NCBI GenBank assembly: GCA_965649165.1 | Contig: CBFGJT010000001.1 | Coordinates: forward strand, 139,853 to 203,852 | Direction of reading: 5' to 3' | DNA length: 64,000 nt | From: a candidate division WOR-3 bacterium | Lineage (GTDB): Bacteria; Hydrothermota; Tepidihabitantia; Tepidihabitantales; Tepidihabitantaceae | Part shown: piece by piece, positions 34,564 through 41,376 of the stretch | Position numbering within the stretch: position 1 is the stretch's first letter | Layout of the letters: each line of letters starts with the position of its first letter | Position numbers and translations under genes: made by a program | The notes under the pieces: model-generated | Database searches by the model: none | What the model saw: the letters and a program-made list of their open reading frames with translations, nothing else | What the model was told of the DNA's origin: nothing

Positions 34564-35913
34564 TTATTCAATCCACTCCGCGTCCGGCAGGTTGAGTTGT
34601 TCGCGGGTGATGTTGCCGATGATGACCATCAGATATCTACCGGGGAAGAGGCGGTTGCGGGCAGCGGTATTAATTTGTTCTAGCGTGGTGGTACGGACCA
34701 GCTCCGGAAAGCGGCTGAACCAGTCCATACCGTAGCCGTAAAGTTCAAAATTGATTAGCTGTTCCAACTTGCCGGAGTTGGCGGAGTAGGTGAGTGGAAA
34801 TGAGCCGGTGAAGTAGTTTTTCGCTTTCTGTAGTTCCGACGGGGTGGCACCGGTCCGTGCCATCCGGTCAATTTCGGCAAGCATCTTCTCAATTGCAATC
34901 TGCGGTTTTGAAGTCTGGACCGTTGCTCGGAAGGCGCCGGTCATACATCGGCGGTCAAACCAGCAGCGGACATCATAGGCAAGTCCGGCATACTCCCGGA
35001 CCGCCAGACCGAGTCGGGAGGAAAGCGGGGGGCCACCAAGGATGTAGGACATAAGCCGTACCGGAATAAGATCTGGAGCCCGGGCAGAAATACCTGGATG
35101 GCCGAAATGGATATAGGTTTGGTTCATATCCGGACGAGTGATCAGTTTAACCTTTAGTTTTTCCGGTGGTGTGATTACAGGCGGTTCCGGCGCAGGTACC
35201 ACTCCCGGTTGCCAGCTGCCGAACCGGAGGGCTATTTCCGCTCTCAGTTCTCTGGGGTTTATGTCGCCGACCGCAACGATGTAGCAGTTGTTGGGCACAA
35301 AGTGGATTGAGTGAAATTGGCGCAAATCGGCAAGGGTGATTTGCGAAATGGTGCCGGTATCACCACGGGCGGGCAGGCTGTAGCGATGAGTACCAAAAAG
35401 AGTACGGTCAAACTCCAGCGTCACCAGTGAACTCGGGTTGTCGTAGGCACGGCGGGCAGCGGTGAGCAGTTCCTCTTGGACGAGACAAAATTCCGGTTCC
35501 GGAAACGCGGGATCGAGGATTGCATCGGCAAGGATGTTTAGACCGGTTTGAATGTCCTTGGACAGAAGTCGGAACTGAAGCCGAATGTGGTCATAGTCGG
35601 CATCTACCGAGTAGTTTGCACCAAGGTAGTCAAGCAGGGCGGCAAGCGAGTCGGCGGTGAAGTTTTTTGTACCGCGCAAAAGCATCCGGGCGCAGAGGCT
35701 GGCAGTGCCCGCCTTCGGAAGCGGTTCGAGCGCAGCACCGGAACGGCAGACTAGCGCCAGGTCAACGATCGGCAGGCGGTGGTCTTCAAAGGTGATGATT
35801 ACCAGACCGTTACTTAGCGAGTCGCGCTCTACCGGAAGTGATAGCAGGGGAGAAAATGCGGTTGTGAACCCGAGTAAGAGAACCAGCAGGTGTGAGTGCT
35901 GAAATAGCTTCAT
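34564..35913 (-). CDS. M16 family peptidase, non-catalytic subunit
   Basis: M16 fold (LSNGLVII; SSRLGLAVREYAGLAY); the HxxEH position is replaced (ASLCARMLLRGT). Confidence 0.85.
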   Translation of the reverse strand: MKLFQHSHLLVLLLGFTTAFSPLLSLPVERDSLSNGLVIITFEDHRLPIVDLALVCRSGAALEPLPKAGTASLCARMLLRGTKNFTADSLAALLDYLGANYSVDADYDHIRLQFRLLSKDIQTGLNILADAILDPAFPEPEFCLVQEELLTAARRAYDNPSSLVTLEFDRTLFGTHRYSLPARGDTGTISQITLADLRQFHSIHFVPNNCYIVAVGDINPRELRAEIALRFGSWQPGVVPAPEPPVITPPEKLKVKLITRPDMNQTYIHFGHPGISARAPDLIPVRLMSYILGGPPLSSRLGLAVREYAGLAYDVRCWFDRRCMTGAFRATVQTSKPQIAIEKMLAEIDRMARTGATPSELQKAKNYFTGSFPLTYSANSGKLEQLINFELYGYGMDWFSRFPELVRTTTLEQINTAARNRLFPGRYLMVIIGNITREQLNLPDAEWIE

Positions 35914-35914
35914 T

Positions 35915-37213
35915 TCACCTCCCTTTTTCCGGCAGGAGTATGCCGACGACCCGCCGGTAGTCGAGAAAATACCGCTGGCAGAACTGTTGGATCTGCACCG
36001 GCGTAGCCAGTTCTACTTTCTGCACCCAATTCAGAAATGAGCGCCATGAGCCGGTGGTGATCTGAGTGGTGGCAATGAGATAGGCGATGCCGGAGATATC
36101 ATCGCGCTCAAAGATCGAGCCGGCGATCGTCTGGTTCTTGACCCGCTGGAGTTCCAGTGTGGTTACCAATTCCGTTTTCATTTTCTCAAGTTCGCGGGCT
36201 ACCAATCGTTCAATTCTGGGGATCAGGGTTTCCGATTTCGGGCTGATCCAGAAGTACATAAGTCCGGGGTCCTTTTCTACCGAGTTCCAGACTGAAACCG
36301 AAGTGGCAAGTCCGGAGTCAAGGACAAGTGTCCGGTAGAGCCGTGAGTTTCTGCCTGAGCCGAGGATGCGGGCGGTGACATCACCGACAAAGTATAACGA
36401 GTCCCGGATCCCGGGTGTCGGGTAGCCGATGATCAGGGTAGGAACCGATACGCGTTTGCGGATGGTAATTCGGCGTTCACCCGCGGGTTCGGGTTCAAGG
36501 TTATAGTAGTCATAGCGTTTGACCGGCTTGCCTCTGATTCTGCCGAAATATTGCTGCACTTTCGCTCTGATTTCATCGGGGGTGACATCACCAGCGATTA
36601 CCAGCACTGCATGTGCTGGGCTGTAATGCTGATACCAGGCGCGGACCTTTTCTACGGTGAAATTGGTGACATCATCAGACCAGCCGATGGTCGGGTTACG
36701 ATGGGGATGGGCAAGCCAAGCGATGGCCTCAAAATTCTCCCAGAGTACCGAGCTGGGGCGATTGTCCTGAAGCCGGCGCTCTTCGGCGACAACTTGATGT
36801 TCACTTTCAAACTCTGAGTCCGGAAAGATACAGTGTCCCATCCGGGCAGCCTCCAGTTTAAGCGCCAGCTCCCAGTGCTCCTTGGCGATATCCTCATAAT
36901 AACCGGTATAGTAGGTGGAGGTGAAGCCATTGTTGAAGGCACCGACCGAGTCCAGCATCCGGTCAAAATCCCCCGGTTTGTAGATGTTGGTGTGCTTGAA
37001 ACTCATGTGTTCGAGCATGTGGGAAATGCCGGTCCAGCCCGGCGGTTCATCATAGGAGCCAACCCGGTAATAGACATTGACTGATACTACCGGGGCTGAA
37101 GTGTCAATATAGCCGATGACCTGCAGGCCATTTTTGAGCTGGAATTCAAACACCCGGGATTCCAGCGGGTCAAAGCTGGTAAGCAGGGTGAGGAGTGATA
37201 AAATGAGGTTCAT
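35915..37213 (-). CDS. M16 family zinc peptidase, catalytic subunit
   Basis: LKNGLQV; GISHMLEHMSF (HxxEH); NGFTS; EHQVVAEERR. Confidence 0.9.
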   Translation of the reverse strand: MNLILSLLTLLTSFDPLESRVFEFQLKNGLQVIGYIDTSAPVVSVNVYYRVGSYDEPPGWTGISHMLEHMSFKHTNIYKPGDFDRMLDSVGAFNNGFTSTYYTGYYEDIAKEHWELALKLEAARMGHCIFPDSEFESEHQVVAEERRLQDNRPSSVLWENFEAIAWLAHPHRNPTIGWSDDVTNFTVEKVRAWYQHYSPAHAVLVIAGDVTPDEIRAKVQQYFGRIRGKPVKRYDYYNLEPEPAGERRITIRKRVSVPTLIIGYPTPGIRDSLYFVGDVTARILGSGRNSRLYRTLVLDSGLATSVSVWNSVEKDPGLMYFWISPKSETLIPRIERLVARELEKMKTELVTTLELQRVKNQTIAGSIFERDDISGIAYLIATTQITTGSWRSFLNWVQKVELATPVQIQQFCQRYFLDYRRVVGILLPEKGR

Positions 37214-37216
37214 AAT

Positions 37217-39220
37217 CTATTCCGAAATTACCAGCCGGACCGGTGCCTGCCGGTTCAGTCGGAGGAAGTAGATCCCCGGTCTCAGGCTCCGTCCATCAGG
37301 TCCATTAAGGGTCAATGTCCGGTTCTCGCCAGTGATGGTGAAGTTTTGAACGACTCTGCCTGCGGGGTCGGTGAGTTTCAAGGTTGCCGGCTGCTGTATA
37401 GACGGGTTTGGGTAAATTACGGTGGTTGTCCGGGCAGGATTTGGAAGAATCCGCAGGAAGCGCTGATAGTCCGTCCGCCTCGGTTCAGCGGTGGCGATGC
37501 CGGTGGTGTTGGCGCCTTCAATCGCATCAAGATGAAATGCTCCGATGGCGGTGAGTCGAAGAAAACGGATACTGTCCAGGCCGGCAGAACCGATGTCGAG
37601 GTAGGTTTCGGGTGCATCGGCGGTGTCCAGCGTCGTCCACGGTCCGAGCCAGCTCTGGGCACCCTGAACCAGCGCATTGCCGGTGCCGGCTGAGCGGTAA
37701 ATCACCAGTTCACTGCCTTCACGGTTGTAAACCGGTTTTCCCATATCAAGACAGATCGTTTTCCCGTTGTCCAGAAGAAAGGCATCTTCATCATCGGGAC
37801 CAAGCGCCCGGACCGGATAGGTGCGGTGGGAGGATGGGGTGACGAAACTGTTGTAGATATGCCGGAAGGCAAAGAGCGGCGCGGCTGAATCAGGCGTGAG
37901 CCGGATTTCAAGCCAGACTGCGGAGTCACCGGTTGCGGAAACAGTGACATTTTCAATTGTGGTGTCACGATAACCCGGCGCCCGGAATGTAAGGGTATAG
38001 GTGCCGGGTAGATAGAATCGGTGAAAGTCGCCGACCGCTGGACTGTTGTAGCTGAGCCAGTTGGCGGGACGGACCCAGATTTGACAGGGCACCGGCATGC
38101 CGGTGAGCGCATCGGTGACTGTTCCGTGAATTCCCTTTCCTGCCAGATGGATGAACTCCAGTATTGCCGGCAGATTGAGATTAAAGCACGGGTCGATTTC
38201 GGATGCGGGTGGGGTTTTCTGGGGGTGGACTTCAATTGACCAGCTCATCATGCCATAGCCGTAATCAAAATCCTTGGTTGAACCGTTGATTAGATACATT
38301 GAGTCTGCACCCTGGCCATAGGTGTAATGAGTCCAGTGGTCATAGCGGGCAGATAGGAACTGGATCAGGTTCAGTTCGGGAATTGTGTTCTGATAGGAGT
38401 AGCAGTAGCTCCAGGGGTGGGAGATGAAGGTGGTGCCCGCATGATAGGAAATGATGACAACTGCAGGATTACACCATATATGAGCAAGCACCGCCTGGTT
38501 CTCCGGTTCTGAACAAGGGCTTGCCCCCTGAGAAATTTCATCCCCCCACATCCAACCCCAGTTGCGGTTCAAATCAACACTGTTGCCGTTATACCGGCTG
38601 GAACTGATATAACCGTCCGGGTTGTACATCGGCAGGAGATAAATTTCCCGGGTGTCAATCAGGCGGGTAACCAGAGTATCACTGCCGTAGTTGCGGACAA
38701 GATATTTGAGCAGCTCAAAGGTGATCGCCCAGCCGATTTTCTCATCGCCGTGAATGTTGCCTTCAAAATGAACCACAGGCTCCGGTTCATCAATCTGGGG
38801 ATTATCGGAGATTTTCATCATCAGCAGCAGATTGCCCCGGTAACTCAGACCCAAGGTTTCAAGCCGGCAGATTCCCGGATTGTTTGCCGCAATGACCGCC
38901 ATCGTATCGCAGTATTCGGCATAGGTCAAATACCGGCCATCACTTTCTTGAAAGTTGCGTTCATAAGTTCCAGTTATATCAGGTGTTATGACTTGAATCT
39001 TATAACCTTTAGCAGTCAGGAGCCGCTGCTGACCGGCGGTTGCCTCGGCAACAACGCCGGTCCGGTTGACATAATTTACCCAGGCGCCGAAGTTTTCAAT
39101 ATTCTGTACGTCATCTCTGGTGGCATTAGTAATTCGAATGAGATCCCGCGACTGTGCCGGGCTGATGTTGAAAAATGCCATAACTTCAGCAAGTATTAAA
39201 AAAACTCTACTTAATTTCAT
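37217..39220 (-). CDS. Secreted M14 zinc carboxypeptidase with a T9SS/FlgD-like C-terminal domain
   Basis: Signal peptide; IHGDE; NSVDLNRNW; SYHAG; SIEVH; C-terminus LRPGIYFLRL. Confidence 0.85.
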   Translation of the reverse strand: MKLSRVFLILAEVMAFFNISPAQSRDLIRITNATRDDVQNIENFGAWVNYVNRTGVVAEATAGQQRLLTAKGYKIQVITPDITGTYERNFQESDGRYLTYAEYCDTMAVIAANNPGICRLETLGLSYRGNLLLMMKISDNPQIDEPEPVVHFEGNIHGDEKIGWAITFELLKYLVRNYGSDTLVTRLIDTREIYLLPMYNPDGYISSSRYNGNSVDLNRNWGWMWGDEISQGASPCSEPENQAVLAHIWCNPAVVIISYHAGTTFISHPWSYCYSYQNTIPELNLIQFLSARYDHWTHYTYGQGADSMYLINGSTKDFDYGYGMMSWSIEVHPQKTPPASEIDPCFNLNLPAILEFIHLAGKGIHGTVTDALTGMPVPCQIWVRPANWLSYNSPAVGDFHRFYLPGTYTLTFRAPGYRDTTIENVTVSATGDSAVWLEIRLTPDSAAPLFAFRHIYNSFVTPSSHRTYPVRALGPDDEDAFLLDNGKTICLDMGKPVYNREGSELVIYRSAGTGNALVQGAQSWLGPWTTLDTADAPETYLDIGSAGLDSIRFLRLTAIGAFHLDAIEGANTTGIATAEPRRTDYQRFLRILPNPARTTTVIYPNPSIQQPATLKLTDPAGRVVQNFTITGENRTLTLNGPDGRSLRPGIYFLRLNRQAPVRLVISE

Positions 39221-39235
39221 TTTACTCCTCTTAAG

Positions 39236-39263
39236 AGATTAGTCAGTTATATATCAATGTCAA
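39236..39263 (-). promoter_or_regulatory. Promoter of the M14-M16-M16 operon
   Basis: TTGACA, 16 nt, TAATCT; AGAGGAG SD before ATG 39220. Confidence 0.6.
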
Positions 39264-39362
39264 AATATTCAGCAGGGAAGTTATTGACGTAACACTAAGA
39301 AATGTCGCACAATTTTTTAAAGGAAGTTCAGCCAGTTAAATAAAAGGAAATGTCGAATTATT

Positions 39363-39572
39363 ATGTGGCTGACAATGACGGCTGTTATCTTCTGGTTAGT
39401 TGTTCCTTTGGGGCTCAGCTATAGCAGCTGGGGAATTGATGATGCCGGAGAAATCCCTTGCTGGCCGCTGAATGGTGGTTATCTTACCGATTCAGTTATT
39501 GAGCTTGATGTGGTAGGCAGAAAGGTTGCCCCAGAAATGATCAATTACTCCGGAGTTTTTTATCCAATATAG
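39363..39572 (+). CDS. Short ORF with a signal-peptide-like N-terminus (possible gene remnant)
   Basis: 69 aa; AAAGGA SD-like sequence upstream; hydrophobic N-terminus; no family recognised. Confidence 0.3.
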   Translation: MWLTMTAVIFWLVVPLGLSYSSWGIDDAGEIPCWPLNGGYLTDSVIELDVVGRKVAPEMINYSGVFYPI

Positions 39573-39608
39573 CAAGAGGAAACGGGGCATCGGACACAAA
39601 ATTATAAT

Positions 39609-39894
39609 CGTGCGTTGATTCTTTTTCTGGTCGCCGAGTTTAATTTAACTTTTGCCGAATGGGAACCGGACCGGCGACTGATTGAAAATCCAGGTGTTTC
39701 ATTGGCCCCGCGAAACAGTCAGCGTTGTATTGTCAGCAAGGCATGACCGGAGCGGTGTTAATCAGATCTATTATTGGCGTTCTACCAACCGGGGGAGACC
39801 TGAGGGGAAGAGGCAATGGATTTCTGATGTCAGCGGGCGACGGTTAAATGGTACATCAACGGCTGGGAGCCGGGTTTTATTTTGTCCTGACTGA
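39609..39894 (+). pseudogene. Frameshifted, start-less remnant of a secreted BNR/Asp-box repeat protein
   Basis: Frame A RALILFLVAEFNLTFA-EWEPDRRLIENPG...RCIVSKA*; frame B HDRSGVNQIYYWRSTNRG resembles a W.D.R.GN..IYY.RSTDGG repeat. Confidence 0.45.
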
Positions 39895-39927
39895 TTTTAG
39901 CAGACAGAAGTACATAATTACCCGTCG

Positions 39928-40503
39928 CTAATAAACAACTACGACACCGGAAGGAATTACTTTTGCTCTGACTTGGCGGATGCCGTTGCGTCGTTTGGCA
40001 TAAACCCGAATCCGGTAGTTGTAGCCGGTTCGGGGTTCAAATCCGACGATCGTGCCCGCGATGCTGCGGTTGGGTTTGGAAGGACCTGCCCAAATGAAGA
40101 CGATGGTTTCAATGATCGCCATCGGGTCATAGTAAAACGATTCACGGTCTTCGGGGGAAAGTCCCTTGAAGACCTCGCCGGCGATTTCAACATGAGAGTG
40201 GAAGTTGCCCAGAAAGCGGAGGTGAAATCGGAAACTGAGTTCGCGGCGCCGCCTGATCACCCGCCGGATCATCGCCCAGTCCCGGAAGGTGATGCCGGTC
40301 CGGCTCTTTTCTCCGCCTCGATAGTAGCATACCCGGCGGACTACCAGTCGATGTTCATGGTTGATGGTGCCGAAGAGGAAACCGAATGTTTCCCGTTTGA
40401 ACTTGGCTTCATACCCCCGGCGGGCAAAACTGCACAGTTCGCGGACCGCCGACTCTTCAAACAGAATCGGGGCCCGGAAGCGCACGAGCGGGTGGATTGA
40501 CAT
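39928..40503 (-). CDS. JAB/MPN+ (Mov34) domain metalloprotein, Arg-rich
   Basis: RETFGFLFG (catalytic Glu); GNFHSH; LSPED (JAMM E...HxH...SxxD); 29 Arg in 191 aa. Confidence 0.75.
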   Translation of the reverse strand: MSIHPLVRFRAPILFEESAVRELCSFARRGYEAKFKRETFGFLFGTINHEHRLVVRRVCYYRGGEKSRTGITFRDWAMIRRVIRRRRELSFRFHLRFLGNFHSHVEIAGEVFKGLSPEDRESFYYDPMAIIETIVFIWAGPSKPNRSIAGTIVGFEPRTGYNYRIRVYAKRRNGIRQVRAKVIPSGVVVVY

Positions 40504-40510
40504 TAGCTTT

Positions 40511-40538
40511 ATTTTAGCACTCGCCCGCAGCAGGTCAA
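40511..40538 (-). promoter_or_regulatory. Promoter of the JAB gene (leaderless)
   Basis: TTGACC, 16 nt, TAAAAT with TGn extension; ATG 7 nt downstream; no SD. Confidence 0.6.
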
Positions 40539-40546
40539 ATCATGAT

Positions 40547-40618
40547 AAAAAATGCCGCTGGAGGGCCTATGCCACGATGGTTGATACGCCAACCAGGGCA
40601 ATCGCCCGACCAGCAGCA
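40547..40618 (-). ncRNA. Candidate small structured RNA (four-way junction ending in U6)
   Basis: UGCUGCUGG/CCAGCGGCA closing stem; hairpins GGGC-GAUU-GCCC, UGGUUG-GCGUAU-CAACCA, GGC-AUAG-GCC; UUUUUU tail; promoter-like motif ends 5 nt before the stem. Confidence 0.45.
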
Positions 40619-40623
40619 GAAAA

Positions 40624-40651
40624 TAAATACAATAGCTTTTTTCGATGTCAA
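40624..40651 (-). promoter_or_regulatory. Putative promoter of the candidate sRNA
   Basis: TTGACA, 16 nt, TATTTA (the -10 lacks the final T). Confidence 0.4.
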
Positions 40652-40719: not shown

Positions 40720-41376
40720 GTGGAATCAAAAAATGAATTCAGTCAGCGTCGGAAGCTGATGGTAGAAGAACAGATTGCTGCCCGCGGTGTCAAGGACGAG
40801 CGGCTTCTGACGGCGATGCTGAAGGTGCCGAGACATCTTTTTGTCCCGGAAGGTTTTGTGCATCAGGCTTATGAAGATTATCCTTTGCCGATCGGTCATG
40901 GGCAGACAATTTCTCAGCCCTATATTGTGGCGGTAATGACCGAGGCATTGCAGGTTGGGAAGCAGCACCGGGTGTTGGAGGTTGGCACCGGTTCTGGTTA
41001 TCAGACCGCCCTTCTGGCGGAACTGGCGGGAATGGTATATACAGTGGAAATAATTGAGGAACTTTCGATCCGGGCGCGGCAGATTCTCAACCGGCTGGAT
41101 TACCGGAACATCAGGTTCAAAGTCGATGATGGCAATGAGGGTTGGAAGGAGTTCGCCCCCTATGACCGGATTATCGTTACCGCTGCGGCAGAGTCAATTC
41201 CTTATGCCCTTGTCGAGCAATTGAAGGAGCAGGGCCGGCTGGTAGCACCGGTGGGACCGGTAGGGGCACAGAGTCTGATTTTAGGGGTGAAGCACGGGCA
41301 ACGGCTGGTGCAGCGATCATTGATGAGCGTGGTATTTGTGCCACTGGTGCGGAGCAAGCCTTCTGTTGACTGCTGA
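40720..41376 (+). CDS. pcm: Protein-L-isoaspartate O-methyltransferase
   Basis: VPRHLFVP; LPIGHGQTISQPYIVA; LEVGTGSGYQ; APYDRIIVTAA; FVPLV. Confidence 0.95.
   Translation: MESKNEFSQRRKLMVEEQIAARGVKDERLLTAMLKVPRHLFVPEGFVHQAYEDYPLPIGHGQTISQPYIVAVMTEALQVGKQHRVLEVGTGSGYQTALLAELAGMVYTVEIIEELSIRARQILNRLDYRNIRFKVDDGNEGWKEFAPYDRIIVTAAAESIPYALVEQLKEQGRLVAPVGPVGAQSLILGVKHGQRLVQRSLMSVVFVPLVRSKPSVDC

Follow-up and report, generated by a model that had tools for sequence, protein, structure and literature searches.

We identified, in a 64,000-nucleotide stretch of DNA from a candidate division WOR-3 bacterium (hereafter the window), a gene whose product, P0001, is probably an active, cytoplasmic, stand-alone zinc-dependent hydrolase of the JAMM/MPN+ type, which would cut amide (peptide or isopeptide) bonds in a substrate other than a ubiquitin-like protein (Ubl); we put the probability of this reading at roughly 0.6. 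Almost all that is understood of JAMM/MPN+ enzymes concerns their action as isopeptidases on ubiquitin or a Ubl. Their motif has long been noted in organisms without ubiquitin-like systems, where its role was given as not known (PMC300881). The P0001 family provides a clean test case, being a conserved, single-domain JAMM that is catalytically intact by sequence and occurs in small genomes of uncultured WOR-3 bacteria without detectable ThiS/MoaD, ubiquitin, E1, Pup ligase or CD-NTase. Its substrate, once found, would define a JAMM function outside Ubl biology and would also explain why the active-site loop is altered and the protein so extremely basic; should that substrate be an ordinary peptide, the family would be a routine addition to the Prok-JAB clan.

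Gene, catalytic motif and predicted fold

The gene starts with ATG and is single-copy in its own genome, a 1.37-Mb MAG of 30 contigs that is 76% complete and in which no paralogous partner is present. Its coordinates and those of the associated features are given in Table 1. Comparison with the same-genus orthologue gave a dN/dS of 0.07 at a dS of 0.40, which shows the gene to be real and under strong purifying selection; the ratio was 0.04–0.12 in most comparisons with usable dS and 0.22 in the most divergent one. A hydrophobic N-terminal segment was absent on inspection of the sequence, the only basis on which the protein is read as cytoplasmic.

Table 1. Features of the P0001 locus and their positions in the window. 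A1, alignment of 39 sequences; A2, alignment of 51 wider relatives.
Feature	Position	Strand	Basis
JAMM/MPN+ CDS (P0001), 191 aa	39928–40503	minus	ORF translation, about 100 homologue clusters, dN/dS, AlphaFold2 model
S116-P-E-D119 codons (SxxD), at the start of helix 117–124; D119 predicted to be the third Zn ligand	40147–40158	minus	invariant
H102-S103-H104 codons; two predicted Zn-ligand His, on strand 96–105	40192–40200	minus	H102 and H104 invariant in A1 and A2; S103 in A1
RRVIRRRR, residues 80–87, in helix 76–93	40243–40266	minus	sequence; R85 invariant, R86 nearly so
YYRGGEKSRTG, residues 60–70; conserved insert in the E-to-HxH interval; small Ins-1-like beta-hairpin in the model	40294–40326	minus	alignment, model
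E38 codon; general-base Glu of the JAMM motif (K-x-E-x-x-G-F)	40390–40392	minus	invariant in A1 and A2
Putative sigma-70-type promoter, TTGACC-16-(TG)-TAAAAT	40511–40538	minus	best promoter-like site in scan, 10/12 matches
Rod-shaped small RNA, 64 nt, between the PCMT and JAB genes	40554–40617	minus	fold z-score −4.8, U-tract
Promoter-like site of the small RNA	TTGACA 40646–40651; TATTTA 40624–40629		

An earlier sequence-only reading of this DNA had described an arginine-rich protein with intact JAMM residues and a longer than usual spacing between the HxH and the serine, and all three parts of that description hold. E38 is found within KRETFGFLFG, the pair of histidines as H102-S103-H104, and S116 and D119 within LSPED, with a distance of 64 residues from E38 to the HxH. 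The canonical motif is EXnHS/THX7SXXD (PMC300881), i.e. seven residues separate the second histidine from the serine, against eleven in P0001 (HxH-x11-SxxD). This x11 spacing is shared by 100 of 100 close homologues, and distant relatives mostly have 11–12 residues, with a few at the canonical 7; it is a variant of the motif in which no residue has been lost.

Conservation is centred on the same residues. The catalytic set of E38, H102, S103, H104, S116 and D119 is invariant in the A1 alignment, as are G30, K36, G41, F42, G45, Y61, G63, G64, R85, G99, F101, D126 and E132, and R62 and R68 are nearly so. Although the A2 alignment reaches down to about 21% identity and nowhere offers a stretch conserved well enough to scan loci with, eight of its columns are still invariant (E38, G41, G45, G99, H102, H104, S116 and D119), a pattern expected for an active enzyme and unlike that of an MPN- scaffold. 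Arginine makes up 29 of the 191 residues (15.2%), including those of the RRVIRRRR motif, and the protein has a pI of 10.86 and a net charge of +19. Its genome, at a GC content of 54%, has 1191 ORFs of 100 aa or more and a median arginine content of 7.7%; P0001 ranks eighth among these ORFs for arginine, within the top 1% of the proteome. The family is basic as a whole, with a median pI of 10.8, and its distant relatives are less so.

An AlphaFold2 model, a check that the sequence-only reading had proposed, was built from the alignment and shows an MPN fold with a pLDDT of 88.9 and a pTM of 0.86. Foldseek matched it, at E 4e-7 and weaker, to BRCC36, Rpn11, PfJAMM1, Cap3 (9ild) and CsRpn11, the Rpn11 homologue of Caldiarchaeum. 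Structural comparison with VIA-align gave Z scores of 16.0 for CsRpn11 (6fnn; 146 of 152 residues aligned), 15.8 for BRCC36, 15.7 for CSN5, 15.6 for Rpn11, 15.0 for PfJAMM1 (rmsd 2.1 over 128 of 129 residues) and 14.5 for the uncharacterised DSY2949 (2kks). Both histidines lie on one strand of the model, and S116 and D119 open the helix that follows, a predicted topology that fits the canonical zinc site. The YYRGG-K-RTG segment, which the profile alignment shows to be inserted with respect to PfJAMM1, contributes the model strands 65–66 and 71–72 of the hairpin; in Rpn11-type enzymes Ins-1 holds the ubiquitin tail. The four extra residues that follow the HxH (VEIAG-VF-G) are modelled as a tight turn, and the x11 loop to which they belong could mean that the canonical substrate groove is altered or blocked.

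Family breadth, promoter and gene neighbourhood

A word-indexed search of 5.8 billion proteins returned about 100 homologue clusters with 36–82% identity to P0001, nearly all of them 170–210 aa in length. Every taxon-named cluster came from candidate division WOR-3, and one UniRef homologue is titled "JAB domain-containing protein". The family is a small one: when 1.84 billion cluster representatives were searched exhaustively with its profile, only 107 matched, 61 at E <= 1e-10. A search among proteins of 336–2000 aa revealed no longer, fused form. Giant proteins matching residues 141–184 were rejected as homologues, being FN3 domains with a common strand motif, and PDB matches to DCC FN3 domains were set aside for the same cause. 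Against Pfam Prok-JAB (PF14464) P0001 scored 16.5 bits (E 0.008), short of the cut-off of 25, but 31 of 51 wider relatives match this model (E <= 0.01; best 8e-11) and 20 of 51 match JAB, which indicates kinship at the level of the clan without formal membership. Matches to the PADLOC JAB models were weak, down to E 8e-5, and NCBIfam and PHROGs gave no match for P0001. RadC (PF04002), which the sequence-only reading had put forward alongside Prok-JAB for a profile check, did not match P0001 even at E <= 10 and matched one of the 51 relatives (E 0.004). In the PDB the family profile matched four sequences, JAMMs without exception: two constructs of PfJAMM1, BRCC36 and the Mov34/MPN/PAD-1 family protein 2kcq; the E and the HxH line up with those of BRCC36, 2kcq and PfJAMM1. 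No description of the family was found in the literature searched. P0001 falls outside every curated family, yet it is clearly a JAMM, and the family is best read as a distinct, lineage-restricted variant of the Prok-JAB clan. The possibility of a new JAB subfamily, raised when the DNA was first read, is supported by the sub-cut-off Prok-JAB score, the x11 spacing, the YYRGG-K-RTG insert and the total of only 107 clusters.

The family is present in 17 of the 19 sampled genomes of the window's own taxonomic family and is patchy beyond it, occurring in 44 of 201 genomes of the phylum when weak matches are counted and as a strong member (E below 1e-20) in 24. The main clade of the protein tree follows genus structure, and second copies, together with the three of genome G143, fall on separate, more divergent branches. 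To judge from the tree, the gene is carried mainly by one WOR-3 family and inherited vertically there. In G143 (L052 and L053 on contigs C33 and C26; also L049) the cassette around two of the three divergent paralogues is duplicated and also includes DUF6876 and three unannotated genes; it may be a mobile element, and the paralogues beside DUF6876 may be of a defence or mobile kind. A family member in another WOR-3 family (L025; G002:C2:76301-76813) has one in-frame TAG inside the match, which may reflect a pseudogene or a sequencing error.

The −10 box of the putative promoter, TAAAAT, ends 7 nt before the ATG of P0001, and no Shine-Dalgarno sequence is visible upstream of the gene. At nine related loci from three genera a TTGACC-like −35 and a −10 box are found with a gap of 7–14 nt to the aligned ATG, and the sequence of the spacer varies. 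The retention of this position in nine relatives is comparative evidence that supports a leaderless P0001 mRNA, and with it the earlier suggestion that the gene has a leaderless promoter of its own.

The small RNA predicted upstream of this promoter has a folding energy of −39 kcal/mol; in all eight of eight genomes from three genera it is encoded 50 nt ahead of the JAB gene. Of 76 sampled genera, a covariance model detected it in only 3, as a single copy in each genome and invariably just ahead of the JAB gene. Rfam yielded nothing in the upstream intergenic region, and the RNA is distinct from the SRP RNA, which is on contig C2. The three genera share the whole syntenic block. As a required partner of the JAB protein the small RNA was rejected, because it is restricted to these genera and the protein occurs in many more.

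Upstream of P0001 the window contains a divergent PCMT gene, tRNA-Pro and genes for a phosphoribosyltransferase, an adenine deaminase and an aldehyde dehydrogenase. Comparison of 41 loci revealed that only the closest genera keep the PCMT-tRNA-PRTase-adenine deaminase synteny, and that the downstream side already varies among them, where relatives have either genes for Memo-AMMECR1 and a BadF-type ATPase or T9SS cargo different from that of the window. Outside these genera the neighbours are T9SS cargo or unrelated housekeeping genes; distant members adjoin, among others, genes for ornithine/DAP decarboxylase, AdoHcy hydrolase and SAM synthetase, DsbD-like, Fe-S assembly and radical-SAM proteins and a nucleotidyltransferase. 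Across the 41 loci no neighbour conserved beyond the close genera, whether a small partner or an RNA/DNA-related gene, was found. Usually the genes beside a main-clade member diverge from it or converge on it, and the gene is thus taken to be monocistronic. This survey of homologue neighbourhoods, also among the checks first proposed, bears out a stand-alone gene with housekeeping neighbours that vary by lineage.

Several further observations concern the surroundings of the gene. Downstream in the window, at 34564-39220 (−), is an apparent operon whose first gene encodes a secreted M14 zinc carboxypeptidase carrying a C-terminal T9SS domain and whose next two encode M16 (insulinase-type) peptidases. 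The approximately 700 bp between the JAB stop and the start of the M14 carboxypeptidase (39221-39927) hold no long ORF; the plus strand has an ORF of 69 aa whose N-terminus is hydrophobic (39363-39572) and other short ORFs, and there is a terminator-like hairpin at 39860-39872. The region may be what is left of a gene that converged on the JAB gene. Methyl-cycle genes occur near the JAB gene in two settings, as the divergent upstream PCMT gene (40720-41376 (+) in the window) in three genera and, in another clade, as AdoHcy hydrolase and SAM synthetase genes convergent downstream of it (L042:5352-7815); their recurrence may be a coincidence. In two genomes of family f9 the stop of a divergent JAB paralogue is overlapped by the gene (L050:8500-9078 (+) and L055:3194-3787 (−)) for a mini ATP-dependent ligase, a stand-alone DNA/RNA-ligase-like nucleotidyltransferase of roughly 195 aa with a KxDG motif (PF01068, E roughly 1e-18 to 1e-20). 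It was rejected as a general partner: although present in 44 of 201 genomes of the phylum, it was found in 0 of 19 genomes of the main family, and elsewhere, where both genes occur, it lies on other contigs.

Partner searches and candidate substrates

Neither ThiS/MoaD (PF02597) nor ThiF/E1 (PF00899) was found in the window's own genome or across 21 genomes from its taxonomic family (0/21 for each; 16 of the 21 are at least 90% complete), using Pfam models that matched in 11–13 of 14 control genomes and that would miss a very divergent beta-grasp protein. Searches for ubiquitin, Prok_Ub, Pup ligase (PF03136) and the CD-NTase family SMODS returned nothing in five same-family genomes, four of which are 96–100% complete. 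The negatives from the window's own genome come from a 76% complete MAG, but complete relatives give the same negative results. Across the phylum E1 was above cut-off in 47 of 201 genomes, with a match in one of the 24 that have a strong P0001-family member (only G083) versus 46 of the 177 others. The sequence-only reading had noted no Ubl, E1, E2 or CD-NTase gene close to P0001, and had named Mec/CysO-type partners elsewhere in the genome as the finding that would speak against its proposal; none of these genes is present near P0001 in the window, and the genome-wide searches for ThiS/MoaD and E1 recovered no such partner in the 21 genomes. These negatives, and the near-absence of E1 from the genomes with a strong family member, argue that the P0001 family is independent of E1-activated Ubl, and with no detectable Ubl or activating enzyme in the host genomes the substrate is probably not of the usual kind.

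The same searches weigh against an ordinary Ubl-type JAB (Mec+/CysO, QbsD, SAMP/TtuB-like or precursor-processing) whose partner has diverged beyond detection or is conjugated by a non-E1 ligase. Such a role would agree with the nearest structures, all of which are ubiquitin or Ubl isopeptidases, and with the conserved Ins-1-like hairpin, which holds the Ubl tail in those enzymes. It would have to accommodate the failure to find ThiS or ThiF, ubiquitin, Prok_Ub or Pup ligase in the same-family genomes, the rarity of E1 among family-bearing genomes and the lack of any small neighbour gene that recurs across lineages. Of the ORFs of 45–160 aa in the window's own genome, 51 end in GG, nearly all of which appear by eye to be spurious, out-of-frame shadow ORFs; one that was checked lies inside a 1091-aa gene, and another is ExbD-like. 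We consider a hidden Ubl partner distinctly improbable. Still less probable, to the point that we give it very little weight, is a CBASS Cap3-, Bil/Bub- or RadC-like JAB of defence systems or mobile elements that has lost its companions. The weak PADLOC matches and the three divergent G143 paralogues with their duplicated DUF6876 cassette are what this idea has in its favour, but P0001 itself is a single-copy gene among housekeeping genes (PCMT, tRNA-Pro, phosphoribosyltransferase and adenine deaminase), its tree follows taxonomy, and no CD-NTase, E1/E2, PHROG match or RadC match was found for it. A housekeeping, vertically inherited context is a poor fit for a defence or mobile role in the P0001 clade.

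The basicity of P0001 invites a different explanation, based on composition, in which the surface binds RNA, DNA or a ribonucleoprotein (the ribosome or the adjacent small RNA, for example) and the enzyme acts on a protein bound to such a particle or on an amide-linked modification of nucleic acid. A pI of 10.9, an arginine content of 15% that places the protein in the top 1% of its proteome and a family median pI of 10.8 all suit this view, as do the conserved small RNA 50 nt upstream in all eight genomes of the three genera and the overlap of a paralogue with a small DNA/RNA-ligase-like gene in two genomes of another family. However, no nucleic-acid-binding domain (Pfam) or fusion was found; the small RNA is confined to three genera within a single syntenic block, and the protein is far wider; the mini-ligase, at 0/19 in the main family, is not co-distributed; and the arginine richness partly follows genome composition, with distant relatives less basic. 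On balance we regard a nucleic-acid or ribonucleoprotein target as unlikely. A more speculative proposal, and one we think quite unlikely, is that the family hydrolyses the products of an undescribed tagging or modification chemistry that uses neither an E1 nor a beta-grasp modifier, for instance by taking an amide-linked group off an acidic protein tail, a ribosome- or RNA-bound protein or a modified nucleic acid, perhaps together with the small RNA in the three genera.

For the preferred reading of P0001 as a stand-alone amide-bond hydrolase with a non-Ubl substrate, the motif and the model suggest the following mechanism. The zinc ion would be held by H102, H104 and D119, with E38 activating a water molecule and S116 stabilising the intermediate. 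An extended tail of the substrate would lie between the YYRGG-K-RTG hairpin (Ins-1-like) and the enlarged loop that joins the HxH to the SxxD, and the bond cut would be a peptide or isopeptide bond in something other than a ubiquitin-like protein that an E1 has activated. An acidic partner would most likely dock on the surface, to judge from its strong basicity (net charge +19) and from K36, R62 and R68, which are conserved and lie next to elements of the active site. The mRNA for the enzyme would be made leaderless from its own promoter.

Comparison with known JAMM systems

Among characterised enzymes, PfJAMM1 (5ld9/5lda) and CsRpn11 (6fnn) resemble P0001 in being single-domain MPN+ proteins of similar size whose E, HxH, S and D align with its own. 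Both cleave SAMP2 or ubiquitin, which are made and conjugated by E1-type systems of the same genomes, whereas no such system is detectable in the hosts of P0001. Identity to them is only 15–21%, and P0001 differs in its x11 rather than x7 spacing, its extra YYRGG insert and its pI of about 11. Rpn11, CSN5 and BRCC36 are among its best structural matches (Z 15–16), and the distance of 64 residues from the E to the HxH also leaves room for an Ins-1-like hairpin, as in these enzymes. These three enzymes, however, work only in large complexes with an MPN- partner, on ubiquitin or Nedd8, while P0001 has no paralogous partner and its hosts no detected ubiquitin.

The bacterial JAMM peptidases Mec+/CysO (Mycobacterium), QbsD and CBASS Cap3 share the catalytic motif of P0001, but Mec+ and QbsD are defined by adjacent or co-encoded ThiS/MoaD-like and E1 genes, and Cap3 by a CD-NTase and Cap2, none of which was found with P0001. 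The Prok-JAB (PF14464) proteins, including DSY2949 (2kks) and 2kcq, belong to the same clan, within which P0001 stands apart by its own tight clade, its hallmark x11 spacing, its high arginine content and a score of 16.5 bits against the required 25.
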